This document shows, one piece after another, positions 12,892-51,493 of a stretch of DNA of 64,000 nucleotides (its first letter is position 1; the number at the start of each line of letters is the position of its first letter). The stretch is from a bacterium. GTDB lineage: Bacteria > Armatimonadota > UBA5829. Below the pieces are notes generated by a model that worked only from the letters and a program-made list of their open reading frames with translations, was not told the DNA's origin and did not search any database. The translations under genes were made by a program, and so were the position numbers. Location: NCBI GenBank assembly GCA_021373255.1, contig JAJFTD010000100.1, positions 24,636 through 88,635 of the forward strand. The letters run 5' to 3'.

Positions 12892-13458
12892 CTAATAAGC
12901 CATTCGGGAGCCAACGGAAATGCAAAGCCCGCTGAAGTCGATATCTTCACTACCTGCAGATATTTTCGGAACCATACTATATGATGCCTCTGCAAAAATA
13001 GTCGCTCCCAACTCAATTCCAGCTACCATATTCAAGCCAAGGTTGAAGTCTTTGTATGTATCATAATAGTAGCTGCTACCAGGTCGATAGCTGGTATAAT
13101 ACAGCCCGACTCCGCCACCGATGTATGGGGAGCGGTTGGGATTGGTGCCAAAATGCTTGATGTAGTTTGCTGTAAGAGGAATAAGGCTGGCACGCTTGTA
13201 ATTTGTCTCATCACCGAACCAACCGACGCTGACCGTAAGTGATGGCCGGTCCATATTGTCGAACTTGGTCTGATAATTGAGCATAGGGCCAATATATATA
13301 CCATTTATATCGCTCAGTGCGCTGCCGGATGGCATAAAGAAACCCACCCTGATGCCTATCGGGCTTCTGTCATTAGATTCATATTGTGCAAAAGCCGTAG
13401 TTCCCAGAAGAATAGTAAGCAAGAGTGCGGTAAAGATAATAAACAGGCTATTTCTCAT
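12892..13458 (-). CDS. Small outer-membrane beta-barrel protein (OmpW/OmpA-like beta-barrel family)
   Basis: The signal peptide MRNSLFIIFTALLLTILLGTTAFA follows a ggagg Shine-Dalgarno. The sequence shows alternating hydrophobic beta-strand pattern, is Gly/Tyr-rich, and ends in an aromatic residue. Confidence 0.5.
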   Translation of the reverse strand: MRNSLFIIFTALLLTILLGTTAFAQYESNDRSPIGIRVGFFMPSGSALSDINGIYIGPMLNYQTKFDNMDRPSLTVSVGWFGDETNYKRASLIPLTANYIKHFGTNPNRSPYIGGGVGLYYTSYRPGSSYYYDTYKDFNLGLNMVAGIELGATIFAEASYSMVPKISAGSEDIDFSGLCISVGSRMAY

Positions 13459-13716
13459 TCGATGTGCCTCCAATGTATCAAACTGGACAGGAGAATTATA
13501 GGTCCACGGCACGTGTGTGTCAATTCCAACGGGCTCGTCTGTAGGAACTGTACATATAATAAACTCGTAGAGAATGCAGAACTCACCATTCTTATAGATG
13601 AGCATTCTAGCTTCGGCGAGAGTTGACAAGCAAGCGCTAAGTAATGTAATCTGAGCCAGATTAACTCAGTAATATATGAAGATTGACCAACCGAATGGTG
13701 AGAAAGGAGGTCGCTT

Positions 13717-14955
13717 ATGAGACGCATTAACGCCACAATTATGGATGTTGCCGGTATCCGTGCATACGATTGCAGGTTACCTGACGATTGTCCGGTGGGC
13801 AAGCTCGCGGCCCGTCTTGCTGAGGTGGTTCGATTCCCCGTTACCGGACCTGATGATCAGCCCATGGAATACGGTCTTATCGCTGAGGGTGGATCTGTTC
13901 TTGATTCAATATCCACACTAGCCCAAATGGATATGGCTGATGGAACGATTATGAGACTCGTTCCGGTGATTTCGGCGGGAAAAGATGTTCTAGACTTTCC
14001 CTTTGATGAAGAAGCTGAGATTGAACTTGAATTCCAGAACGAGCAAATAGATGTAGAAGTTCTTGAAGAGCGCCCTCTATTGCACGATTCCGGGCTTGAG
14101 TTGAGACTTGATGTTAGAATAGACGCGCAGGTTCACCGTGAGATAGAGCAGTTTGCCGAAATCGATCGGCACAAGGAATGCGCGGGATTGCTGCTTGGTA
14201 AAGTAACCACCGAGGGGCGCGATCGGGTTATACAAATCACTGCATTCGTCCCAGCGGAGCATGCAAGTGGCACCAGGACAAACGTGACCATCGGCCTGGA
14301 TGCATGGGCGAGTATGCTGAGAGTCCGTGAGGAGCGATACCCTGATCTCCGTATACTGGGCTGGTTCCACACCCACGCGGGGTGGGGCGTGTTCATGTCG
14401 GACTCCGATGTATTTATCCAAAGGCACTTTTTCCCGCATCCAAATATGGTGGCGTTTGTATTGGACCCAACGATCGCACGCGATGGTTTCTTTTTCTGGC
14501 ACGAAGGTAAGATCAGCCTTTGCGGAAGCTATGGCATAGTGAGTGCACCCGTGCACACGCAGAATGAGAAGAAAAATAAACGCACGGCAAAGAAAACCAA
14601 AAGACCTGATCTGCGAGATATAGCGATAGGGCTTCTCATTGCTTCGACAATGTACTTCGGTTTTACGCACGCGATCCCGCATCAAAACGTGGTGAAACCG
14701 GCGCATGTGTCGGTTCAGAAACAAGTCAGCGTGCCTGTTGCACCAGTTAAGCCCGTCGAAAAGCCGCAGCAGATGCGCATGTATGTGCTTGGTAGAGGTG
14801 AAAACCTCTGGATGGTGTGTAACCGCGTGTATAATAATGGCGATCTAGCGCAGGCCTTGGCGGATTATAACGGCATCAAGGACCTGTCAGGGCTACAGGT
14901 GGGCCAGGAGATTAAGCTGCCGCCGGCGAAAGTCCTGGAGCAGCTCGCACAATAG
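13717..14955 (+). CDS. Multidomain protein: N-terminal YukD/EsaB-like ubiquitin-like domain + JAMM/MPN+ metallopeptidase + single TM + C-terminal LysM
   Basis: The complete JAMM motif is E(CAGLLLG)...HTHAGWGVFMSDSD (E, HxH-x7-S-x2-D). The N-terminal ~85 aa (YDCRLPDDCPVGKLAARLAEVV...ADGTIMRLVP) matches the YukD/EsaB beta-grasp pattern. A KKNKRTAKKTKRPD basic stretch precedes the TM helix IAIGLLIASTMYFGF. LysM reads YVLGRGENLWMVCNRVYNNGDLAQALADYNGIKDLSGLQVGQEIKLP. Shine-Dalgarno is aaggagg. Confidence 0.75.
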   Translation: MRRINATIMDVAGIRAYDCRLPDDCPVGKLAARLAEVVRFPVTGPDDQPMEYGLIAEGGSVLDSISTLAQMDMADGTIMRLVPVISAGKDVLDFPFDEEAEIELEFQNEQIDVEVLEERPLLHDSGLELRLDVRIDAQVHREIEQFAEIDRHKECAGLLLGKVTTEGRDRVIQITAFVPAEHASGTRTNVTIGLDAWASMLRVREERYPDLRILGWFHTHAGWGVFMSDSDVFIQRHFFPHPNMVAFVLDPTIARDGFFFWHEGKISLCGSYGIVSAPVHTQNEKKNKRTAKKTKRPDLRDIAIGLLIASTMYFGFTHAIPHQNVVKPAHVSVQKQVSVPVAPVKPVEKPQQMRMYVLGRGENLWMVCNRVYNNGDLAQALADYNGIKDLSGLQVGQEIKLPPAKVLEQLAQ

Positions 14956-15002: not shown

Positions 15003-15788
15003 GTGGAATTGCAGGATTTTCTTCAGGATATTGCTCGGGGAGCCGGGCAGATCATCAAAGATAAATATCATGTCACAAAGATCTGGCGTACAAAATCAAG
15101 CCCCGGCGATATAGTTACCGAGGTGGATGAGGCATCGGAAAAATATGTGATGGACCGCATCCACCAGGAATTTCCTAATGATCACATCCTCTCTGAAGAG
15201 AGTGGAGCCAGCGGAATCGGTGAGCCCGACAGAGTGTGGATAATCGATCCGCTAGACGGCACGCGCAATTACATGATGGGTATCCCATTCTTCTGTGTCT
15301 CCATAGGAATCGCACGAAATGGAGTTCCCGAGGCGGGTGTAATATATGACCCCATTCACGATGAAATGTTCTATACCGAGCGTGGCAAAGGCGCATGGCT
15401 GAACGGCGAGCGCATATCCGTGTGCAATGAGGTCACCCTCGATGACAGCTTGATTTCAGTAAGCTGGGTGAAGCGTAAAGTAGACCGCAAGCGGTTCATA
15501 GAATATCTGGACAATCTGAGCAAAGACACCTCCTACTTCCGACGCTTCGGCTCAGCCGCTCTTGCAACAGCCTATGTAGCCTGCGGCCGTCTGCACGCAT
15601 ACCTACAAGGCGGCTTGAACCCATGGGACGTAGCCGCCGGTGTGTTATTGATCGAAGAGGCGGGTGGGGTAGTAACCGATTTCAAAGGCAACCCACTAGA
15701 CCTCCGCAACCCCGACATTGAGATCCTAACCTCCAACCCGGATCTGCACGAAATGCTCTTGAACCAGGTAATGGGCATCCGCAAATAG
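15003..15788 (+). CDS. Inositol monophosphatase family protein (SuhB/CysQ-like)
   Basis: WIIDPLDGTRNYMMGIPFFCVSIGI is the IMPase metal-binding motif. GTG start. Confidence 0.8.
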   Translation: MELQDFLQDIARGAGQIIKDKYHVTKIWRTKSSPGDIVTEVDEASEKYVMDRIHQEFPNDHILSEESGASGIGEPDRVWIIDPLDGTRNYMMGIPFFCVSIGIARNGVPEAGVIYDPIHDEMFYTERGKGAWLNGERISVCNEVTLDDSLISVSWVKRKVDRKRFIEYLDNLSKDTSYFRRFGSAALATAYVACGRLHAYLQGGLNPWDVAAGVLLIEEAGGVVTDFKGNPLDLRNPDIEILTSNPDLHEMLLNQVMGIRK

Positions 15789-15841: not shown

Positions 15842-16642
15842 ATGAGAATTTATGCTATTCCAGCTTTGCTCATAGGCATTCTTACGTTCATTGGGTTTCG
15901 GATAGCCTACATCCGCAGCTCAAATGTAGCGGTACGGGTAGGGTTGATTTTAGCGGGTTTAGTGCTAGCCATACCAGCAGTGTTGTTTACCAGCAACTAC
16001 ATGCTTCTCATCCCATATGCCGATTGGTTCTTTAACGCTCATACGCTGCCAGGAGTTGAAGCGAGTTCGGGATTGGTCGGTGCTCTGCTGGGGATCATGT
16101 TCGCTTCATCCAAGCTGCGGCCAAGCAAGCTCAACTTCCCCGTGCTAAGTTTTTGCACAATACTGGCTTCAGGTCTCCTCATTGCTCCATTTGCCAAGCA
16201 ACTCCTATACGGCGTAGATTATTCCAATCTTACAAACAAGTGGAATAATGGTATCTGCCTGCAAACGAGCAGCTACACTTGCGTGCCTGCCTGTGTTTCA
16301 ACACTCATTCGAATGCAGGGAGGCAACATAGCAGAACCTGAATTAGCGAGAGCTGCCGGTACCACGAAACATGGCACCGAAACGTGGTATCTGGCGAGAG
16401 CCTTGAAAAAACGGGGTTATAAAGCGCATTTCCACAATGTGCGGTCGCTCAGGAACGCGCCGGTACCGTCGGTGGTCAGTGTGAATCTTGGAGATATTAG
16501 GCATGTGGTCGTCCTGTTGGCTAAAGATGAAAATGGCCTCACGATCGGTGAGCCGTTGCGGGGACGCCACAGCTACAAGTGGAGTGTTTTCCAAAAGAGC
16601 TATCATCCAGATGGTATGTGCATCACCATCACCGCACGGTGA
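15842..16642 (+). CDS. Membrane-anchored peptidase C39-like domain protein (four N-terminal TM helices)
   Basis: Q-x5-C-VPAC-V resembles the C39 Q...CGxACL catalytic-Cys motif. A downstream HVVVLLAKDENGLTIGEP resembles the C39 His...DP motif, with Glu in place of Asp. Confidence 0.55.
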   Translation: MRIYAIPALLIGILTFIGFRIAYIRSSNVAVRVGLILAGLVLAIPAVLFTSNYMLLIPYADWFFNAHTLPGVEASSGLVGALLGIMFASSKLRPSKLNFPVLSFCTILASGLLIAPFAKQLLYGVDYSNLTNKWNNGICLQTSSYTCVPACVSTLIRMQGGNIAEPELARAAGTTKHGTETWYLARALKKRGYKAHFHNVRSLRNAPVPSVVSVNLGDIRHVVVLLAKDENGLTIGEPLRGRHSYKWSVFQKSYHPDGMCITITAR

Positions 16643-35872: not shown

Positions 35873-35929
35873 TCCGATAATTTGTGTATTGATGTGAAGA
35901 GGGATAAGGGGAGGGTACATTCGGCCACT

Positions 35930-37468
35930 ATGCGAAGAGAATGCTTGCAAGATTGGCTGTTCGTAGTTGTTTTCGCGGCGGTTGTTATATATCAAGTGTT
36001 GATTAGCCCTGTTGTCGGCATGCCTGATAATGGGGATTTTCCTCGTATGATGAACTCAGTAGGCCTCTCCGTTGCTGATTCCCCCTATGAAACCGGGTTT
36101 TATGCATTCTCTCGCCATTATCATTGGGACCTATCAACGCGAGGCAAACCGTTCCCTTCGTCTGAACTAGCATTTGTGATCCCGGCTCTTGCTGTGAATA
36201 AAGTAATATCAGGAGACGGACTATTCGATATCGTAGCCTTGGGTATAGTTCATCTCATTGGATATTGTGCAGTCATCACAATTTTCGCTTACTGCGGATT
36301 TAGGTCCAGGCTGCGCTGGCGATGGTTGATCTATCTTGCGGTGATTGTGCTGTTTTCGGATGTCACTTATATCGCATATTTCAACTCCTTATACGCAGAA
36401 CCCGCATCTTTGATTTTTTTATGCGGTGGCCTTGCATTTGCCATGCTCGCTATTATCGAAGCCGCTGCTGAGCGTCCGAGGACATATCCGCTGTTGGGCT
36501 GCTTCGTATGCTGGATACTTTTCCTGTTGGCTAAATTGCAGAACGTGATGCTTGTCCCGTTGCTGGCGCCGATTGTGTATTTGATGTACGTGAATTATAC
36601 ATCGCGTGCTGATGGAGCATTCAAATCGCTGCGCGCGAAAAAGTGGCAAGTCTTAATAGCATTTATCGGGATTGCATTTGCTTATTGGTCAATATACTCT
36701 ATCTTTCCGATGGGTGTTCGTAATGTCAATGTCTACAATAATGTTTTCTTCGAGATAATCAAAAAATCTCCCACACCCAAAGCCGATCTAAAAGATCTTG
36801 GCCTGAACGAGAGCTACCTAAAATATAAAGGCACGCATTCCTGGTCACCTGGCATTACTGAAAAGCTTCATAACGATGTCTATAACTGCGTCGGCGAGAA
36901 GGGGGTTATGCTTTTCTATATTAAGCACCCTTCGCGATTGTGCAGGCTCCTGTGGAGTGCAGCTAAATACAGCTTTGAAACAAGGCCGGGGTACCTTGGT
37001 AATTTTGATAGCAAGTCATATGCTAATATACTACACGAACATCCAAACAGAAAACTTGCCCCAGGCGAGTCGACGAATGCGGAATGCACAGGATTTGAGC
37101 GTTTTCCCTCATTTTGTTTCAGTCACTCATTTGCGTTCAGCAGTGGATTCAAAGAGCGATTTATTGTAGGTTCATCGTGGTCGCTGCTTATCTTTATTGT
37201 AATCAACTTTGCTGCAATTGGATGGAAACTACGGTGGCGTGATCGGGATATCTCTACACGAAGTGTGTCACTAATCCATCTCGCGCTGCTATTAATGGCT
37301 ATATTCCAGTTCTTAACTGTCACTATTGGCACTGGTGAGATGGACCTGGTTAGGCATCTATTCTTGTTCGGTCTGCTGTGTGATCTCTGTACGGTATTCC
37401 TCTTAGGATATCTTGTAGAGCTTTTTGCTCCACATATTCGTGCAGGACAATCCGCCTCCGGCGTATAA
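35930..37468 (+). CDS. Polytopic integral membrane protein of unknown function (possible GT-C/polymerase-like)
   Basis: About 500 aa with at least 10 predicted TM helices and a DNGDFPRMMNSVGL periplasmic-loop motif. The ORF is open from 35882. The printed coordinates are off by 1 relative to the ORF track in this stretch. Confidence 0.45.
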   Translation: MRRECLQDWLFVVVFAAVVIYQVLISPVVGMPDNGDFPRMMNSVGLSVADSPYETGFYAFSRHYHWDLSTRGKPFPSSELAFVIPALAVNKVISGDGLFDIVALGIVHLIGYCAVITIFAYCGFRSRLRWRWLIYLAVIVLFSDVTYIAYFNSLYAEPASLIFLCGGLAFAMLAIIEAAAERPRTYPLLGCFVCWILFLLAKLQNVMLVPLLAPIVYLMYVNYTSRADGAFKSLRAKKWQVLIAFIGIAFAYWSIYSIFPMGVRNVNVYNNVFFEIIKKSPTPKADLKDLGLNESYLKYKGTHSWSPGITEKLHNDVYNCVGEKGVMLFYIKHPSRLCRLLWSAAKYSFETRPGYLGNFDSKSYANILHEHPNRKLAPGESTNAECTGFERFPSFCFSHSFAFSSGFKERFIVGSSWSLLIFIVINFAAIGWKLRWRDRDISTRSVSLIHLALLLMAIFQFLTVTIGTGEMDLVRHLFLFGLLCDLCTVFLLGYLVELFAPHIRAGQSASGV

Positions 37469-41278: not shown

Positions 41279-42480
41279 GGATTCTATTCATAGTCCCATA
41301 CGTGCCGTCCCGGATCAGAATTCGCCCATTCGCGCTGATCAGGGAGCTTTCGCGGAATCACGAAGTGCACATAATTGCGCTCGCTGAACCTGGCTCTGCC
41401 AAGCACCCAGGCGTTGATGAGCTTCCGGGTATGGTAGAGGAACTCACGATAATCCCACACAGCAGCATTCGCGGATATGCTCAATCGCTCCTTGCCTTAG
41501 CTTCACCCACGCCAATGTGCGCAGCATACTGCTGGTCGGCATCAATGAAGAACGCGGTTGAAAAAGCACTCACATCCAGCCATTTCGATATCATTCACGT
41601 TGAACACCTTCGCGCAGCTCACTTCGTGCCACTAAATACAAAAATACCGGTGGTGTTCGATTCGGTGGATTGCCTCACGGGGCTATTCAGACAGATGTAT
41701 TCATCAAAGCGCAATCCCCTGGGAAAGCTGGTTGCTCTGGAGGAGTATCTGAAACTCAGAAGATACGAGCCAGTGCTTATAAGACGCTTTAATCACACTA
41801 TCATAACATCAGAATCTGAGAAGAAAGAAATGGCTGCGCTTTACCCTGATGGAACCGTGAGTGTCGTCCCAAATGGAGTCGACACAGATTATTTTACCCC
41901 CATAGGCCACAACAGGCACCCGCACAGGATGGTCTTCAGCGGAAAAATGAGTTATCACCCAAACGCGCAGGCTGTTATTTGGTTCGCTGAAAGTGTATTC
42001 CCAGCAATAAAGACGAAGTTCACTGATGCTGAGTTTGTTATTGTGGGCAGCAATCCGCCACCAGCAGTTCAGCGGCTCGCGCAGATACAGGGTATCACCG
42101 TGACCGGACGTGTCGAGGATATACGACCGTATCTGGACTCTTCATCAATTGCCGCAGCGCCTATGCGGGTGGGGGTGGGGGTTCAAAATAAAGTGCTGGA
42201 AGCCATGGCAATGCAACTGCCTGTCGTGGCAAGCCCAATAGCAGTTAGGCCGTTTGGGAAAAATTGCCCCGGCATTGTGGCGGCTGAAACTGTCAGTGAA
42301 ACAGCGGCTTCGATAATACAATTAATGGCTCATCCCGAAGAGGCTGTGGATGTAGGAATCCGTGGCCGAACGCATGTAGTAGAAAATTACTCCTGGTGTT
42401 GCAGCGAGCGAATGCTGATTGAGATCTATGCTGACCTTTGCGATAGGGCTAATTCCGGGACAGGGAGGAATGATGGATAA
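41275..42480 (+). CDS. GT4 glycosyltransferase (tandem paralog of the previous gene)
   Basis: MRILFIVPYVPSRIRIRPFALIRELS...GVGVQNKVLEAMAMQLPVVAS. ATGA overlap with the upstream stop. Confidence 0.8.
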   Translation: MRILFIVPYVPSRIRIRPFALIRELSRNHEVHIIALAEPGSAKHPGVDELPGMVEELTIIPHSSIRGYAQSLLALASPTPMCAAYCWSASMKNAVEKALTSSHFDIIHVEHLRAAHFVPLNTKIPVVFDSVDCLTGLFRQMYSSKRNPLGKLVALEEYLKLRRYEPVLIRRFNHTIITSESEKKEMAALYPDGTVSVVPNGVDTDYFTPIGHNRHPHRMVFSGKMSYHPNAQAVIWFAESVFPAIKTKFTDAEFVIVGSNPPPAVQRLAQIQGITVTGRVEDIRPYLDSSSIAAAPMRVGVGVQNKVLEAMAMQLPVVASPIAVRPFGKNCPGIVAAETVSETAASIIQLMAHPEEAVDVGIRGRTHVVENYSWCCSERMLIEIYADLCDRANSGTGRNDG

Positions 42481-44191
42481 AATTAAGTGGGGGGTTGTGC
42501 TGCGCGTAACGGCTGTGCTGATGTTGATTGGAGCCATCGCAGGCTTGTTCCATATCCGCTGTTTCAATGGGTTGACTACGCGCGACGCAATGGACTTGGG
42601 CCAGATAGCTGCCAATATCAGTGAGGGCAGAGGATTCAGCACGCGAATGATTAGGCCCATGAATATGGCATTCGCTTCGCCAAGTGATGTCTATCTTCCT
42701 GAACTAAATCGCCCACCGCTATATCCTTATGCACTTGCCGGGATGTTCCGGTTTAAAGCTGTGAGTGCACAGAGTGTTATTAGGACATCACTTGTATTTT
42801 ATTTCTTAACTGTGCTGGCGACTTTTCTATTGGGCGCAAAGTTATTCGATTGGAAAACCGGGCTCCTGGCGTCATTTCTATTTGGCGCAAGCGCTCCAAT
42901 ATTACAAGTAGCCACAGCCGGTAATGAATGGACGATGGCGTGCTTGTGGTTTACACTAATGTTGATATGTGTGGCTGGGCACCATAAATTGGTAGAGCAC
43001 TCACCATGGCGAGCCCTGGTTTACACAGTACTTGCGGCTGTCCTGACCGGCGCATTATATATGACCAGCCACGTTCTATGGATTATTATGCTGCCGGTTG
43101 CCATCTATTTCGGCATAACCGGTCATAAGCGGGTCCTGAACTTGAGCATATATGTAGTGCTAGCAGCGTTGCTGATGTGCCCGTGGGCAGTGAGGAATGT
43201 AATGCGAACCGGATGCCCATTACTTGGCGCAACTGCCTGGGACGCAATGGCCAATACCAGCACATTACCAGGTGATATGGTTTATCGTACGACTATGAAC
43301 GGCCTTCCGCGATTGGCTGTATACCCAATCGAGCACTTCCCCGATATAGCAGAAAAACTATTGGACCAATCCAACATAGATATTCAGCGATTAGCCATGT
43401 TGCTCGGAGTCGCAATATTGCCTTTTGCATTGGTGAGCGTGCTATATAGGTTCAAGAGCCACAGCGCCAATGCTGTCAGAGGGTTGTGCTATGGGGTTGT
43501 GCCTGGGCTGTTATTATCACTGGCGGTTTTCAGCGTAAATAGTGACGCAATGATCGTCCTGGCTCCGTTTGCATCCGTGATCGCTTCAGCCTATTTTATC
43601 CTTCTTCTGAATGCGAAAAAGCTGCATCCAGTGTATGCAAAGGGGATTACTTTATGCCTGGTGCTTCTCACACTTTTACCTACTGTTACAACTATCATCT
43701 GGCCCGGCACTGGCGATATTACTGATAATGCTAACATTCTTGCCGCTGGCAGTTTCTTTGACAGGCTGCGAGCAACGCCGGACACATTGCTATTCACCGA
43801 TGCGCCTTGGACTGCTGCATGGCACACCCGAGCGAGCTGCGCGTGGGTGCCGGTAAGGGATGAGGACGTAGAGGCTCTGGATTCTCTGGGGCTCCGTATG
43901 CAGGCTGTAGTATTAACACCTGAGTCAGAAAAACTGCCGGCAAACGAGATATGGTATGCGCTACATACCACCCCGTGGTGGCGCGATTATCTATCCTCAC
44001 CCAACAAGAGCGTTGAGCAGTTAGCTGCAACAATAGGCTTGACTTCCGAACAAGCAAAACTCATAAAGAAGAATATGCCGCGTTTGAAGAGATCGTTTAA
44101 GTTATCAGAGACTCTAGCAGGTTTCAAATCAAGGCCAACGGATCCAATTCAGCCTGATAAAATCCAATTCTTGATACGCTCGGAGAACTGA
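42470..44191 (+). CDS. GT-C family 39/83-like (ArnT/PMT-like) polytopic membrane glycosyltransferase with a C-terminal soluble region
   Basis: About 11 TM helices. The first-loop motif RDAMDLGQIAANISEGRGF resembles the DE...IAREM loop of ArnT/PMT enzymes. Confidence 0.5.
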   Translation: MMDKIKWGVVLRVTAVLMLIGAIAGLFHIRCFNGLTTRDAMDLGQIAANISEGRGFSTRMIRPMNMAFASPSDVYLPELNRPPLYPYALAGMFRFKAVSAQSVIRTSLVFYFLTVLATFLLGAKLFDWKTGLLASFLFGASAPILQVATAGNEWTMACLWFTLMLICVAGHHKLVEHSPWRALVYTVLAAVLTGALYMTSHVLWIIMLPVAIYFGITGHKRVLNLSIYVVLAALLMCPWAVRNVMRTGCPLLGATAWDAMANTSTLPGDMVYRTTMNGLPRLAVYPIEHFPDIAEKLLDQSNIDIQRLAMLLGVAILPFALVSVLYRFKSHSANAVRGLCYGVVPGLLLSLAVFSVNSDAMIVLAPFASVIASAYFILLLNAKKLHPVYAKGITLCLVLLTLLPTVTTIIWPGTGDITDNANILAAGSFFDRLRATPDTLLFTDAPWTAAWHTRASCAWVPVRDEDVEALDSLGLRMQAVVLTPESEKLPANEIWYALHTTPWWRDYLSSPNKSVEQLAATIGLTSEQAKLIKKNMPRLKRSFKLSETLAGFKSRPTDPIQPDKIQFLIRSEN

Positions 44192-49590: not shown

Positions 49591-49833
49591 ATGGAGCAGA
49601 TTGACTTGAAAAGTCTGATCGAAATCCTGGTTAAGGCCCTGGTTGATAATTCAGATGCCGTGATAGTTAGCGAGCAGGATCAAGGGCAGTCGGTGACATA
49701 CGAAGTCACCGTGGATCCTGATGATCTCGCGAGAGTAATCGGCAAACAGGGACGCGTGGCCAATGCGCTGCGCACCGTTGCGAAAGCTGCGGCTATCAAG
49801 AGCCAGAAAAATGTATATGTAAAGATCCTGTAG
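49591..49833 (+). CDS. KH-domain RNA-binding protein (YlqC-like)
   Basis: 80 aa containing the VIGKQGRVANALRTV KH core (GxxG loop). Confidence 0.8.
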   Translation: MEQIDLKSLIEILVKALVDNSDAVIVSEQDQGQSVTYEVTVDPDDLARVIGKQGRVANALRTVAKAAAIKSQKNVYVKIL

Positions 49834-49840
49834 CAGTGCG

Positions 49841-50269
49841 ATGGGTATTATTGTAAAGCGCCCGATTCGTGTGAAAGTCGTTGTGACGGAGCAATTCAAA
49901 GCCGCCAGAACGGCCGAGATACGTGGTGCGTTGGGTAAGCTTGACGAAGCGGGGAAACGCGTGGCTGTCCAGCTTGAATCCATTGCGCGGCGAAATGAAG
50001 TCGCTGGGCAGGAGGCGGACTCGATAAGGGAACGTCTCCGGGCCGAGCAGCGTAAAACAGAAAGCACACACAGGGTCCTGTTACGAGAGCTTGATAGGAT
50101 TTCCTCGGCATCAATTGGGGATGAATACGAGCAAGGGGTTCTGGAAGGGGAAGTCGAGTTGGAAGTTGGCGATGACTTTTCCCGAGTGAGCACCTGTGAA
50201 ATTGTGGTTACTGACGGCAAGATTTCGGAGATACGGGACGGCTTATGCCCCGAGAAAACCAAGATATAG
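49841..50269 (+). CDS. YlqD-like small protein (DUF2869-type) in the position it occupies in Bacillus-type operons
   Basis: 142 aa, charged and coiled-coil-like, sitting between the KH protein and rimM exactly as ylqD does in the Firmicutes rpsP-ylqC-ylqD-rimM-trmD-rplS operon. Confidence 0.45.
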   Translation: MGIIVKRPIRVKVVVTEQFKAARTAEIRGALGKLDEAGKRVAVQLESIARRNEVAGQEADSIRERLRAEQRKTESTHRVLLRELDRISSASIGDEYEQGVLEGEVELEVGDDFSRVSTCEIVVTDGKISEIRDGLCPEKTKI

Positions 50270-50772
50270 TTATAGGCAATATTGTTGCGCCGTTTGGTGT
50301 TCGCGGTGAGGTAAAAGTAGTGGTCCTCACCGAGTTTCCTGAGCGGTTCGACAAAGGTCATGAAGTAACGCTCAGGACATCGAATGGCGAACGCCGGACA
50401 ATGAAGATTGATCAAAGCAGGCCCGGTAAGAGTGGGGTCACGATCAAATTCCAGGGTGTCGATGACCGTAATGGCTCGGAGGCGTTGAGAGGCGCTGATA
50501 TTGTCATTGATCAGTCTGATCTTGGTGAGTTGCCTGAGGGTTCGTTCTATGTATTCGATCTTATTGGTCTCAAAGTGATGACTGAAGACGGTCGTGAGAT
50601 TGGTGAGGTGACAGAAATCTTGCAGGGCGGCGCGAATGATGTGTATGCCACCAGCACCGGGGTTATGATACCGGCGCTCAAAGATGTGGTTAGCAAGATC
50701 GACATCGAAGGTGGTGTTATGGTAGTTCGGCCTGTGCCGGGACTGCTTCCGGACGACCAGGATGCGGATTGA
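50245..50772 (+). CDS. rimM: Ribosome maturation factor RimM
   Basis: [27 protein letters not shown] is the RimM N-terminus, followed by a PRC barrel. Confidence 0.85.
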
Positions 50773-51493
50773 GATAATCACCACGCTTCCTGATATGGTG
50801 GAAGCGGTGGCAAGCGAAAGCATCCTTGGGAGGGCTCGGAAGAAGGGGCTGGTGGAAGTTGAGGCCGTAAACCTCCGCGATTTCACCGAGGACAAACACC
50901 GGACCACCGATGACGCGCCTTTTGGCGGCGGTCCTGGGATGGTGATGAAGTGTGAGCCGGTATTTATGGCTGTAGAGTCGCTTACTGGCCGTGGCGGCCC
51001 CAGGCCAAGGGTGTTGCTGATGACCCCGCAGGGCAGGAGATTCGACCAAAAAATGGCCGAGGAACTGTCTCGCGAACATCATATTATAATGATTTGCGGC
51101 CGATATGAAGGTGTGGATGAGCGTATACGGGAGCACCTGGTAACCGACGAAGTGTCGATCGGAGATTACGTGTTGACCGGCGGTGAGCTTGCGGCGTTGG
51201 TGATATTGGACGCTGTGAGCCGGTTGGTTCCCGGGGTGCTTGGTGATGAGACATCACCGCTCACCGATTCGTTTTCGAGCGGGCTGCTTGAATACCCGCA
51301 GTATACGCGCCCGGCGGAGTTTGGTGAGTATCGGGTGCCCGATGTCTTACTTTCGGGCAATCATGCGGAGATAGAAAAATGGCGTCATCAGCAGGCGCTT
51401 AAGCGGACGTTTGAACGGCGGCCGGACCTGCTTGAGACCGCGCCACTTGATTATAAAGACAAGCGTTTCCTAAAAGAATTGGAGACTTCTTGA
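50762..51493 (+). CDS. trmD: tRNA (guanine37-N1)-methyltransferase
   Basis: [15 protein letters not shown]...[17 protein letters not shown]...[12 protein letters not shown]. Confidence 0.9.

Follow-up and report, generated by a model that had tools for sequence, protein, structure and literature searches.

Gene and domain organization

The window (the whole 64-kb stretch of DNA that was analysed) contains, at positions 13717 to 14955 of the forward strand, an ORF encoding a 412-residue protein in which a YukD-type beta-grasp ubiquitin-like (Ubl) domain is followed by a JAMM/MPN+ peptidase, a transmembrane (TM) helix, and a LysM domain (Table 1). All four domain assignments were above the Pfam cut-offs, and the occurrence of these parts in a single polypeptide, which had been proposed in a sequence-only reading of the locus, held in the Pfam and topology checks. 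The AF2 model of the full-length protein had a pLDDT of 86.5. The position of the start codon was common to the homologues (MxQIAATV...).

Table 1. Features of the fused gene and of the gene that follows it
Feature	Positions	Strand	Residues	Basis or remark
Ribosome-binding region	13696..13716	+		AAGGAGG 7 nt 5' of the ATG, direct sequence reading
Ubl beta-grasp domain	13717..13980	+	1-88	includes the tail V84-I85-S86-A87-G88
Acidic, disordered, variable linker	13981..14055	+	89-113	pLDDT <50 at residues 92-105
Rpn11/CSN5-like JAMM (MPN+) metallopeptidase domain	14056..14541	+	~114-275	Pfam JAB
Juxtamembrane helix and Lys/Arg-rich stretch	14542..14610	+	276-298	ending ...NEKKNKRTAKKTKRPD
Single TM helix, predicted N-in/C-out	14611..14676	+	~299-320	hydropathy, positive-inside bias, AF2
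Pro/Val/Lys-rich extracytoplasmic spacer	14677..14778	+	321-354	pLDDT <50 at 321-348; variable among homologues
LysM peptidoglycan-binding domain, C-terminal helix, and stop codon	14779..14955	+	355-412
Inositol-monophosphatase-family gene	15003..15788	+		Pfam Inositol_P 241 bits; recurrent downstream partner

The peptidase domain was assigned to Pfam JAB (PF01398) at 43.8 bits against a cut-off of 22.5, and its sequence matches in the PDB were CsRpn11 (2e-7), Rpn11, and CSN5. Foldseek matched its MPN fold to CsRpn11 and Rpn11 with TM-scores of 0.77-0.78 (E ~1e-9). The domain begins with an N-terminal extension strand (residues 114-120), and its Ins-1 segment (residues 180-194) was modelled by AF2 as a hairpin, located at 184-192. 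The JAMM motif aligns with those of CsRpn11 and Rpn11, with E154 as the catalytic residue, H218, H220, and D231 as zinc ligands, and S228; these five residues are invariant in 37 homologues. The HxHx7SxxD motif was intact in 103 of 103 fused proteins and substituted in none, in agreement with its earlier description as complete. The active-site motif is thus a complete MPN+ motif, from which zinc-dependent peptidase activity is predicted. The linker that precedes the domain differs in both length and sequence among the 37 homologues; its first residue, K89, would be the P1' residue should the protein be cleaved.

Eight Lys or Arg residues are held in the 15 residues preceding the TM helix, and the juxtamembrane helix was placed at 279-289 in the AF2 model. 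The hydropathy maximum was 1.63 at residues 302-320, where AF2 modelled a helix from 299 to 317. The earlier suggestion of a positive-inside helix with LysM outside was borne out by the charge bias (8 versus 2), which corresponds to an N-in/C-out orientation. By this predicted topology the Ubl and JAB domains are cytoplasmic and the LysM domain, C-terminal to the helix, is extracytoplasmic. LysM (PF01476) scored 22.9 bits against a cut-off of 20.9, and its beta-alpha-alpha-beta elements (354-357/364-372/375-384/398-401) were modelled with pLDDT >90. W365, Y372, and N385 are invariant among the homologues, and peptidoglycan binding is predicted for the domain.

The architecture had been described as unreported-looking, which is correct for part of it. 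Without the Ubl, the JAB-TM-LysM arrangement is that of a large family (764 representatives at E<=1e-30) and is already known: Fuchs et al. 2018 (PMC6043591) briefly referred to 'bacterial lysM-associated JAMM sequences'. What is unusual is the Ubl fusion alone.

The Ubl domain and its relatives in conjugation cassettes

The profile match of the Ubl to the YukD/EsaB family (PF08817), which has a beta-grasp fold, was confirmed with Pfam, but its relatives turned out to be modifiers of E1/E2/RING/JAB cassettes and not components of type VII secretion. The nearest sequence relatives were cassette modifiers with 31-41% identity, and an HMM of the Ubl recovered cassette Ubls at 1e-9 to 1e-22. The profile was in register with ubiquitin and CsUb, PEITAG corresponding to L71-RLRG-G76. 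The tail V84-I85-S86-A87-G88 is aligned to ubiquitin R72-L-R-G-G76, with A87-G88 at G75-G76, and this alignment makes G88 the precise counterpart, by homology, of ubiquitin G76 and of the Gly that ends the free Ubls.

Ubl-E2-E1-JAB cassettes with the same JAB subtype were found in at least eight phyla, and frequently also encode TM Prok-RINGs. In the 49 non-Armatimonadota loci having this subtype, E1 and E2 both adjoined the JAB gene in 36 and at least one of them in 45, and a Ubl of the same family was located upstream on the same strand in 36. Examples of the cassettes are L076 and L074 from Armatimonadota, L024 from Bacillota, and L043 from Chloroflexia; those in L043, L074, and L076 were confirmed by Pfam. 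Bacterial Ubl/E1/E2/Prok-RING/JAB cassettes were reportedly described by Burroughs, Iyer and Aravind in 2011, and we take them to be the source of Pfam PF14446 Prok-RING_1. As far as could be found, the literature holds no studies of membrane-associated cassettes of E1, E2, RING, and JAB with a YukD-type modifier.

All 38 cassette Ubls carry [A/P]G where the window protein has A87-G88; 23 end there, 10 have 1-9 further residues, and 2 are fused to E2, a Ubl-E2 fusion being present in L043. Because the cassette Ubls read [A/P]G, some of them with extra residues or an E2 fusion, their cognate JABs must cut at this site. Pfam YukD therefore extends beyond the non-conjugated proteins of type VII secretion and also takes in Ala-Gly-ended modifiers encoded beside E1 and E2 in at least eight phyla.

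The window protein shares with the cassettes a homologous Ubl, the tail register, and the Rpn11-like JAB subtype with its N-terminal extension strand, and with L024, L074, and L076 the JAB-TM-LysM architecture. A cassette Ubl has a gene of its own, ends in Ala-Gly, and has genes for E1, E2, and RING next to it, whereas in the fused form the Ubl is in cis, the gene lies apart from all the conjugation enzymes, the terminal Gly of the Ubl is not conserved across the clade, and a neighbouring inositol-monophosphatase (IMPase)-family gene recurs. By these sequence relationships, the fused form derives from the bacterial Ubl (E1/E2/RING/JAB) conjugation system, of which it is an uncharacterised side branch.

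Distribution and genomic context of the fused form

The fused form constitutes a small monophyletic clade of Armatimonadota with ~17 clusters at 50% identity. In a neighbour-joining tree without support values, 24 of 24 sampled fused proteins fell into one clade, to which the unfused JAB-LysM encoded in the same genome did not belong. The family is full-length across ~100 sequences down to 36% identity, with 33 invariant columns that include all catalytic residues.

E1 and E2 genes were absent from the 64-kb window and from 21 fused loci, as were FtsK/EssC/EccC, WXG100, and other type VII secretion genes. Operon co-location of Ubl, E1, E2, and JAB was accordingly 0 in the window and 0/21 in the fused loci, versus 36/49 non-Armatimonadota loci with E1 and E2. 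The earlier statement that no such genes are nearby is correct locally, and the comparison with related genomes yielded E1 and E2 beside the unfused relatives. One Armatimonadota genome (GCA_050948905.1, 3.05 Mb), however, has a fused gene and, 1.65 Mb from it, a complete cassette; the fused gene is thus a paralogue. The free Ubl of this cassette terminates in ...TAG*, where the fused paralogue has ...AAA-ADVP.

The terminal Gly (P1) was kept in 62% of the fused clade versus 38/38 cassette Ubls. P1 was small (Gly/Ala/Ser/Cys) in 85% of the fused members, the window protein included, and N/T/R/Y/V/K in 15%; P2 was Ile or Val in 35%. The tail as a whole nevertheless keeps its register and its small/hydrophobic character.

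These counts bear on the possibility that the protein is a precursor for conjugation, in which the JAB would cut after G88 and free an 88-residue Ubl for E1, E2, and RING encoded elsewhere; the Ubl would be attached to membrane-proximal targets, and the membrane JAB-LysM would then be the deconjugase. The homology of G88 to the free-Ubl C-terminus and the Ala-Gly retained in the window protein are in favour of it, as are the fusion pre-proteins of related systems (Ubl-E2 in L043; BubAB) and the complete E1/E2/RING set in one genome with the fused gene. Against it, 38% of the fused members are without the terminal Gly, and the genome with both forms has Ala-Ala-Ala in the fused copy and a proper free Ubl already in its cassette. 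E1 and E2 were absent from every fused locus, and no E2 accession was present within the accession blocks of the window MAG. We consider this precursor role distinctly unlikely. The self-processing release that had been suggested for the Ubl is thus divided in outcome: a relation in cis between Ubl and JAB was strengthened by the homology of G88, by the AF2 strand, and by P2 covariation (below), and release for conjugation is unlikely family-wide because of the 38% without Gly.

The local loss of E1 and E2 and the decay of the terminal Gly could also be taken to mean that the fusion is a functionless remnant of a degraded cassette. This is very improbable given the ~100 full-length sequences, the 33 invariant columns, the intact LysM, and a conserved gene partner. 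That partner is the IMPase-family gene, which comes next downstream in 12 of the 21 distinct loci. It scored under every NCBIfam equivalog cut-off, the 47-nt gap between the two genes contains no terminator-like site, and the genes are probably co-transcribed. A C39 peptidase was rejected as a conserved partner, being present only in the window, and an OMP was rejected because it was present in 3 loci only. A putative split variant with adjacent Ubl and JAB genes (P0093) was rejected as well, since it is a fused protein merely without LysM. The other short matches examined for a split variant sit on short contigs.

Probable docking of the Ubl tail in the JAB groove

Docking was judged from DSSP strings, pLDDT, and covariation. 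Residues 85-88 were modelled by AF2 as a strand (pLDDT ~91) and Ins-1 as a hairpin when the full-length sequence was used, whereas in a model of the Ubl alone residues 84-92 are coil of lower confidence. The tail was therefore ordered by AF2 only when the JAB domain was present.

The strongest inter-domain covarying pair of 16,652 was A87-I234 (z 6.9; Neff ~80), and Ins-1 residues 186-195 occurred in many further top pairs. I234 is located on the helix directly after the catalytic D231, which we take by its position to be the groove helix. A P2 Ala was paired with Ile234 in 58 of 62 sequences, and a P2 Ile or Val with L/V/F/A in 31 of 34. The covariation is partly phylogenetic, 29 of the 34 sequences with P2 Ile/Val having a like nearest neighbour. 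Taken together, the modelled secondary structure and the covariation indicate that the Ubl tail probably docks in cis in the JAB catalytic groove.

An alternative is that the Ubl is an adaptor, that is, a non-cleaved interaction module like YukD/EsaB or the EccD Ubl, which would recruit partners to the membrane protease; the real substrates would then be unrelated to the Ubl, for example cassette-made conjugates or other cytoplasmic proteins. Type VII secretion genes were absent from all loci, and the nearest relatives of the Ubl are cassette modifiers. A tail that is in register, small/hydrophobic, and covarying with the post-Asp helix would be needless if it were unconnected to the active site, and its ordering by AF2 in the presence of the JAB is also against this explanation, which we regard as unlikely.

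Cleavage of the tail in cis is not the sole conserved function of the family, because members with a bulky P1 or an Ile/Val P2 keep a perfect catalytic site. In CsRpn11, such residues at P1/P2 abolish cleavage (PMC6043591).

Proposed origin and mode of action

The parent system would have comprised a free YukD-type Ubl ending in Ala-Gly, E1, E2, membrane Prok-RINGs, and a membrane-anchored Rpn11-like JAB with LysM outside. In one Armatimonadota lineage, the Ubl gene would have been joined in frame to the 5' end of the gene for its cognate JAB-TM-LysM peptidase, and the fused gene would have left the cassette. The homology, the domain order, the equivalence of G88 in position to the end of the free Ubl, the decay of the Gly, the retention of the catalytic site, and the coexistence with a full cassette in one genome are established; tail docking, cleavage, and their regulatory consequence are what we infer beyond them. 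Anchored in the cytoplasmic membrane, the protein would expose its Ubl and JAB domains to the cytoplasm and bind the peptidoglycan outside by LysM. The Ubl body would be bound to the ubiquitin-binding face of the JAB, and the tail I85-S86-A87-G88 would extend in the catalytic groove along the Ins-1 hairpin as a beta-strand, placing the G88-K89 bond at the zinc site. The peptidase would thereby be filled by a substrate or product mimic belonging to the same chain.

Where P1 is small, as in the window protein, the bond would probably be cut once in cis. The enzyme would then remain product-bound and self-inhibited, and would act on other Ubl conjugates only after the Ubl had been displaced. Where P1 is bulky, the tail would be an uncleavable plug. 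Cleaved or plug alike, the fused Ubl would be freed from the requirement to be conjugated. As a whole, this reading of the protein as a cassette-derived paralogue and a self-engaged, autoregulated or self-cleaving deubiquitinase-like protease is, in our judgement, evenly poised between right and wrong.

Two versions of a switch operating without E1 or E2 were weighed against it. In the first, engagement of LysM with peptidoglycan would gate the JAMM cut at G88-K89 and thereby free or unplug the cytoplasmic Ubl within a single-chain ubiquitin/deubiquitinase switch. We hold this to be improbable; if true, it would be a new regulated proteolysis coupling cell-wall state to cytoplasmic signalling, evolved by domestication of a ubiquitin together with its own deubiquitinase. 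In the second, binding or release of peptidoglycan by LysM would alter the oligomeric state or conformation across the membrane and trigger cis cleavage, the freed Ubl being a diffusible cytoplasmic signal. The topology, in which a sensor-type domain faces outwards and a latent cleavage module lies in the cytoplasm, and the conservation of the family as a stand-alone gene away from conjugation enzymes are consistent with this version. LysM and TM are, however, not specific to the fused form because they were inherited unchanged from the unfused cassette JAB, one member is entirely without LysM, a receptor for the free Ubl is not known, and a single TM helix between disordered spacers is a poor signal transmitter; it is accordingly more doubtful still.

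Under the preferred, self-engaged reading, a ubiquitin would have been taken out of conjugation and put to new use as an internal regulator of its own deubiquitinase. The fused protein would be a natural one-polypeptide Ubl-peptidase complex that can be expected to yield, by crystallisation or modelling, an enzyme-substrate (or enzyme-product) state. It would also mark the reactive C-terminal residue of the modifier, and its self-cleavage would be a simple assay for the specificity of this JAB subtype.

Comparison with other Ubl systems

Bacterial Ubl conjugation systems have become experimentally tractable only recently (CBASS Cap2/3, Bil, Bub). PADLOC returned only generic JAB matches for the window protein (E 5e-4) and none for the cassette Ubl, E2, or RING, its models for Bub-like systems likewise giving only weak generic matches, and NCBIfam 6A-MBL cap2_3 scored 16 bits against a cut-off of 320. 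With no specific match in either resource and a housekeeping-gene context, assignment to an anti-phage Ubl system (CBASS Cap2/Cap3, Bil, 6A-MBL) was rejected. YukD/EsaB and the N-terminal Ubl of EccD function in type VII (ESX) secretion, unlike the window Ubl with its ubiquitin-register tail and cassette relatives, and a type VII secretion reading was rejected on these grounds together with the absence of EssC and WXG100 from all loci. A sulfur-carrier (ThiS/MoaD/CysO-Mec+) reading was set aside, since the Ubl matches YukD/ubiquitin and not ThiS, the JAB resembles Rpn11, and the neighbourhood is free of sulfur-metabolism genes.

Some eukaryotic deubiquitinases (USP4, USP7, USP14) contain a built-in Ubl that modulates the enzyme by engaging the ubiquitin-binding site. 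Like the window protein they combine a Ubl domain and a deubiquitinase in one polypeptide, but they have a cysteine protease fold, have no cleavable Ubl tail in the active site, and are soluble and eukaryotic. Use of a Ubl as a regulator in the fused form would parallel the USP Ubl domains and would have arisen independently, at least twice, in bacteria.

For the JAB domain, CsRpn11 of Caldiarchaeum subterraneum (PDB 6FJU, 6FJV, 6FNN) was the best match in both sequence and structure, with E 2e-7, a TM-score of 0.78, and 26-29% identity, and its partner CsUb was matched by the Ubl profile. CsRpn11 processes pro-CsUb by a cut that follows the tail, and the Ub tail adds a new strand to Ins-1 (Fuchs et al. 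2018, PMC6043591). This pair differs from the fused form in being archaeal, soluble, and made of two separate proteins, with a Gly-Gly tail and no TM or LysM. An experimental precedent is Type I Bub (BubAB/BubCD), in which a Ubl fusion pre-protein is cut by a JAB right after a conserved Gly (Ye et al. 2024 preprint, 10.1101/2024.11.21.623953); there the Ubl is joined to E2 and not to JAB, the JAB acts in trans, other families of Ubl, E1, and E2 are involved, and the system is not membrane-anchored. Fusion of a Ubl to JAB itself occurs in the TAPI protein of phage tail assembly (Iyer et al. 2006, PMC1779556), where the Ubl and JAB are of other families and are accompanied by neither TM nor LysM.

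Domain architecture and topology of the fused protein

The ORF at 13717-14955 (+) is genuine, with a Shine-Dalgarno sequence (AAGGAGG) 7 nt 5' of its ATG and a product of 412 aa. The sequence-only reading had assigned to this product a YukD-like ubiquitin-like domain (Ubl), a JAMM (JAB) peptidase, a transmembrane (TM) helix, and a LysM domain, and all four were recovered, either as Pfam matches over the curated cut-offs or as a hydrophobic helix. The JAMM/MPN+ motif is complete, exactly as first quoted (E154 plus H218-x-H220-x7-S228-xx-D231). The single hydrophobic helix (~299-320) is flanked by 8 Lys/Arg in the preceding 15 residues versus 2 after it, and no signal peptide was found in the protein; the Ubl and JAB domains are therefore placed in the cytoplasm and LysM outside, in agreement with the positive-inside topology proposed earlier. 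The AlphaFold2 (AF2) model, built on a 37-sequence alignment, had a mean pLDDT of 86.5, with each of the three globular domains above 90 and disordered linkers at residues 92-105 and 321-348. The N-terminal domain modelled alone was a beta-grasp (pLDDT 90.6), as had been supposed.

Features of the fused protein, its neighbourhood, and related Ubl conjugation cassettes
Feature	Position	Strand	Remarks
YukD	residues 12-81		Pfam 36.8 bits (cut-off 27)
JAB	residues 132-237		Pfam 43.8 bits (cut-off 22.5)
Prok-JAB			Pfam 25.7 bits (cut-off 25)
LysM	residues 356-402		Pfam 22.9 bits (cut-off 20.9)
Small OMP beta-barrel-like protein	window 12892-13629	-	Pfam 22.9 bits, below cut-off of 28.7
IMPase-family gene	window 15003-15788	+	directly 3' of fused gene
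Peptidase_C39, stand-alone domain	window 15842-16642	+	47.5 bits
Exosortase/EPS cluster	window 19612-44191	+	large
Cassette, Chloroflexia MAG	L043:3333-9846		GntR-E1, TM Prok-RING_1, YukD-UQ_con fusion, free YukD Ubl, JAB, TM-FHA, vWA
Cassette, Armatimonadota	L074		YukD Ubl, E1, JAB-LysM, two Prok-RINGs, E2, second JAB (Pfam)
Cassette, GCA_050948905.1	L076:2182-11992 (contig 425,858-444,424)		E2, trypsin-like protease, free Ubl, E1, unfused JAB-LysM, Prok-RINGs (four to five tandem TM Prok-RING_1 paralogues), second E2, second JAB, FHA-like multi-TM protein
Example [A/P]-Gly YukD-type Ubls (among L024-L072)	L029:3597-4022, L032:5017-5301, L025:1954-2223

Family size and distribution

Two NCBI entries from an Armatimonadota MAG (MCE5199258.1 and MEN6583901.1) are 100% identical to the window protein and carry automatic names only ("EsaB/YukD family protein", "Mov34/MPN/PAD-1 family protein"). 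Clustering at 90% gave 94 homologues with 36-52% identity to the query, mostly of ~400 aa (five are shorter, mainly from short contigs), and every homologue bearing an organism name is from Armatimonadota. When one genome per GTDB species was scanned with the family alignment, full-length matches were likewise confined to Armatimonadota MAGs or MAGs without a phylum name. The 37-sequence alignment has 33 invariant columns, the five catalytic residues among them, and HxHx7SxxD is intact in 103/103 family sequences, so that no substitution of these motif residues was seen in relatives. Such strong conservation contradicts the view that the protein is a decaying relic.

When 1.84 billion representatives were searched exhaustively with a profile, only ~17 clusters at 50% identity showed the full architecture; below these the score falls steeply to proteins of 300-350 aa matching JAB, TM, and LysM alone. 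Since 764 proteins reached E<=1e-30, JAB-TM-LysM is a large family of which the Ubl fusion is a rare part. The architecture had looked unreported; this held for the Ubl-JAB-TM-LysM fusion, of which no description was found in the literature, but not for the common form without Ubl. Each part taken singly (JAMM, LysM, and the ubiquitin-like beta-grasp) is of a known kind, as is the parent cassette. The literature yielded no experimental work on the JAB-LysM family, and Fuchs et al. 2018 (PMC6043591) mention "bacterial lysM-associated JAMM sequences" only as omitted from their map. In the 2006 survey (Iyer et al., PMC1779556) YukD is tied only to ESX secretion, and phage TAPI supplies the sole Ubl-JAB fusion. 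One fused-clade member, P0093 (L077:5001-5966, on a 268-kb contig), has 321 aa and stops right after the TM helix; its lack of LysM may be natural or may stem from a frameshift, and an IMPase gene still lies 3' of P0093.

Relationship to Rpn11 and ubiquitin

The window JAB is of the Rpn11 type, eukaryote/archaeon-like: its best PDB sequence matches are the Caldiarchaeum Rpn11 homologue CsRpn11 (2e-7), Rpn11, and CSN5, and Foldseek TM scores against CsRpn11 and Rpn11 were 0.77-0.78. The proposed YukD likeness of the N-terminus stood at the level of the Pfam family, but a profile of the window-type Ubl and its free relatives matched ubiquitin and Caldiarchaeum ubiquitin (CsUb), not YukD structures. 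In the profile alignment the tail P-E-I-T-A-G is in register with ubiquitin L71-R-L-R-G-G76, which makes G88 in the window protein equivalent to G76 of ubiquitin.

Parent conjugation cassettes

The same JAB subtype occurs in Planctomycetota, Chloroflexota, Bacillota, Bacteroidota, Desantisbacteria, Ignavibacteria, Betaproteobacteria, and others. Both E1 (ThiF) and E2 (UQ_con) lie beside it in 36/49 non-Armatimonadota loci and at least one of them in 45/49; a same-family Ubl is found upstream on the same strand in 36/49. Cassettes with Prok-RING were reportedly treated by Burroughs et al. in 2011. Composition was checked by Pfam in three loci (L043, L074, and L076). The L043 E1 carries a fused GntR-type HTH, and the second, free Ubl of this locus has 88 aa and ends in ITAG-stop; L046 is near-identical. 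L076, with two E2s and two JABs (one with LysM), is unusually elaborate; its trypsin-like protease is membrane-anchored and the cassette adjoins lgt/lspA.

Where the window protein has A87-G88, all 38 cassette Ubls have [A/P]-G. The Gly is followed at once by a stop in 23, by 1-9 more residues in 10, by a fused E2 in 2, and by a longer continuation or unresolved end in 3. Because [A/P]-G is always present and some Ubls are extended or fused, the cognate JABs must be capable of a precise cut after Gly. Experiments have shown such cuts by CsRpn11, which cleaves pro-CsUb after the tail Gly (PMC6043591), and by BubCD, which cleaves the BubAB Ubl-E2 fusion (10.1101/2024.11.21.623953). Cassettes with YukD-type [A/P]-Gly Ubls (L024-L072) span at least eight phyla. 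The Pfam YukD family, usually described as non-conjugated T7SS proteins, evidently also holds probable conjugatable modifiers. In another Armatimonadota genome (GCA_054641735.1; L073:8001-9387) an E2 and Prok-RING_1 pair stands alone, with no Ubl, E1, or JAB within 8 kb; cassette components can evidently be scattered in this phylum.

The fused form as a paralogue

E1, E2, and RING genes were absent from 21/21 distinct fused loci and from the 64-kb window, phylum-matched queries included. The earlier statement that no E1/E2 lies nearby thus holds locally, but a full cassette is present elsewhere in GCA_050948905.1, where E2 P0384 (MGI6294811.1) and fused P0076 (MGI6296121.1) share one 3,053,041-bp contig, the cassette at ~0.43-0.44 Mb and the fused gene with its IMPase at ~2.09-2.11 Mb. 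The fused gene and the full E1/E2/RING system therefore coexist in at least one genome, and the fused form, a paralogue, has not taken the place of the cassette. In this genome the free Ubl ends in EPTAG-stop, versus EIAAA-ADVP in the fused paralogue.

In a neighbour-joining tree of JAB domains, without support values, 24/24 sampled fused proteins formed one clade apart from every unfused JAB, including that of GCA_050948905.1 itself. P0112, a distant fused protein (434 aa; Ubl-JAB-TM-coiled coil-LysM; tail EITAK, with Lys in place of Gly), has a Ubl resembling the Bacillota/L024 type. In the same unsupported tree its JAB falls among JAB-LysM proteins of the unfused kind, which indicates at least two independent origins of the Ubl-JAB fusion.

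Proposed docking and cleavability of the Ubl tail

From AF2 secondary structure, covariation, and the linker, we infer that the tail sits in the JAB active site in cis. In the full-length model residues 85-88 form a beta-strand (pLDDT ~91) and the Ins-1 segment (184-185, 189-192) a hairpin; modelled without JAB, the Ubl has a less confident coil at residues 84-92. In the same way, the CsUb tail adds a strand to the Ins-1 hairpin of CsRpn11 (PMC6043591). MI-APC covariation across 97 full-length members (Neff ~80) ranked A87-I234 first of 16,652 Ubl-by-JAB pairs (z 6.9), in a signal that is partly phylogenetic. Ala at P2 (position 87) pairs with Ile234 in 58/62, and Ile or Val with Leu, Val, Phe, or Ala in 31/34; Ins-1 residues 186-195 recur in many other top pairs with Ubl residues. 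I234 lies on the helix just after catalytic D231, by position probably the helix H3 that bounds one side of the CsRpn11 groove (PMC6043591). Beyond G88 comes a disordered, acidic linker whose length varies among homologues, as suits a segment that only has to span the distance between the catalytic site and the N-terminal JAB strand 114-120. A YukD/EccD-like adaptor role, with substrates unrelated to Ubl, is weakened by the conserved tail, its covariation with JAB, and its behaviour in AF2.

In 101 fused members, P1 (position 88) is occupied by Gly 63 times, by Ala 15 times, by Ser 7 times, and by Cys once, the other 15 members having Asn, Thr, Arg, Tyr, Val, or Lys there; at P2, 65 have Ala and 35 have Ile or Val. 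CsRpn11 still cleaves after a P1 Gly-to-Ala change and is blocked by Val or Glu, with P2 more restrictive (PMC6043591). By these rules ~85% of fused members are plausibly cleavable, the window protein (S-A-G, with K89 at P1') plausibly among them, and ~15% probably are not; the catalytic site is perfect in all, including those with a probably uncleavable P1. Decay of a Gly that is invariant elsewhere argues against continued selection of the fused Ubl for E1 activation. This decay, and the proper free Ubl already encoded in GCA_050948905.1, weaken the alternative of a plain conjugation precursor.

The best-supported reading is a membrane-anchored, peptidoglycan-tethered Rpn11-like peptidase with its cognate Ubl in cis and the tail in the catalytic groove. 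Where P1 is small it would most likely cut itself once, and would then stay inhibited, by product or plug, for as long as the Ubl is in place, as an autoregulated deubiquitinase-type enzyme derived from a full E1/E2/RING system. A cell-wall-gated switch for Ubl release is possible but unsupported, since the LysM/TM part was inherited unchanged and P0093 lacks LysM. The main interest of the fused protein would be as a natural single-chain enzyme-substrate complex and as a case of a ubiquitin retired from conjugation.

Genomic neighbourhood

In 12/21 distinct loci an IMPase-family gene lies immediately 3' of the fused gene, and often its start codon overlaps the stop codon of the fused gene; none of the unfused cassettes examined has it. 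The window IMPase fell under every NCBIfam equivalog cut-off, including SuhB, HisN, FBPase, and CysQ. No terminator-like site was found in the gaps between the fused, IMPase, and C39 peptidase genes of the window; a strong hairpin with a minus-strand score lies beyond the C39 gene (16679-16712). The C39 gene, present only in the window's genome among fused loci, has no ABC transporter fused or adjacent and matches FapD-type C39 weakly; its N-terminal hydrophobic region resembles several TM helices. The OMP-like gene is divergent and upstream of the fused gene, with a homologue in the same place in loci L007 and L010.

ORF 49651-50907 (-; 418 aa) matched no Pfam family at E<=1e-5, and neither 35882-37468 nor 42419-44191, within the EPS cluster, had a Pfam match. 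This cluster encodes a Wzz-like protein with a P-loop (BY-kinase-type) domain, an ABC-2 permease, a Wzt ATPase, ~ten glycosyltransferases, a Wzy-like protein, a methyltransferase, exosortase EpsH+DUF3485, and a 1050-aa DUF11 protein. Housekeeping genes elsewhere in the window include rpsB-tsf-pyrH-frr-uppS-dxr-rseP-ispG, gyrA, ffh, and proS.
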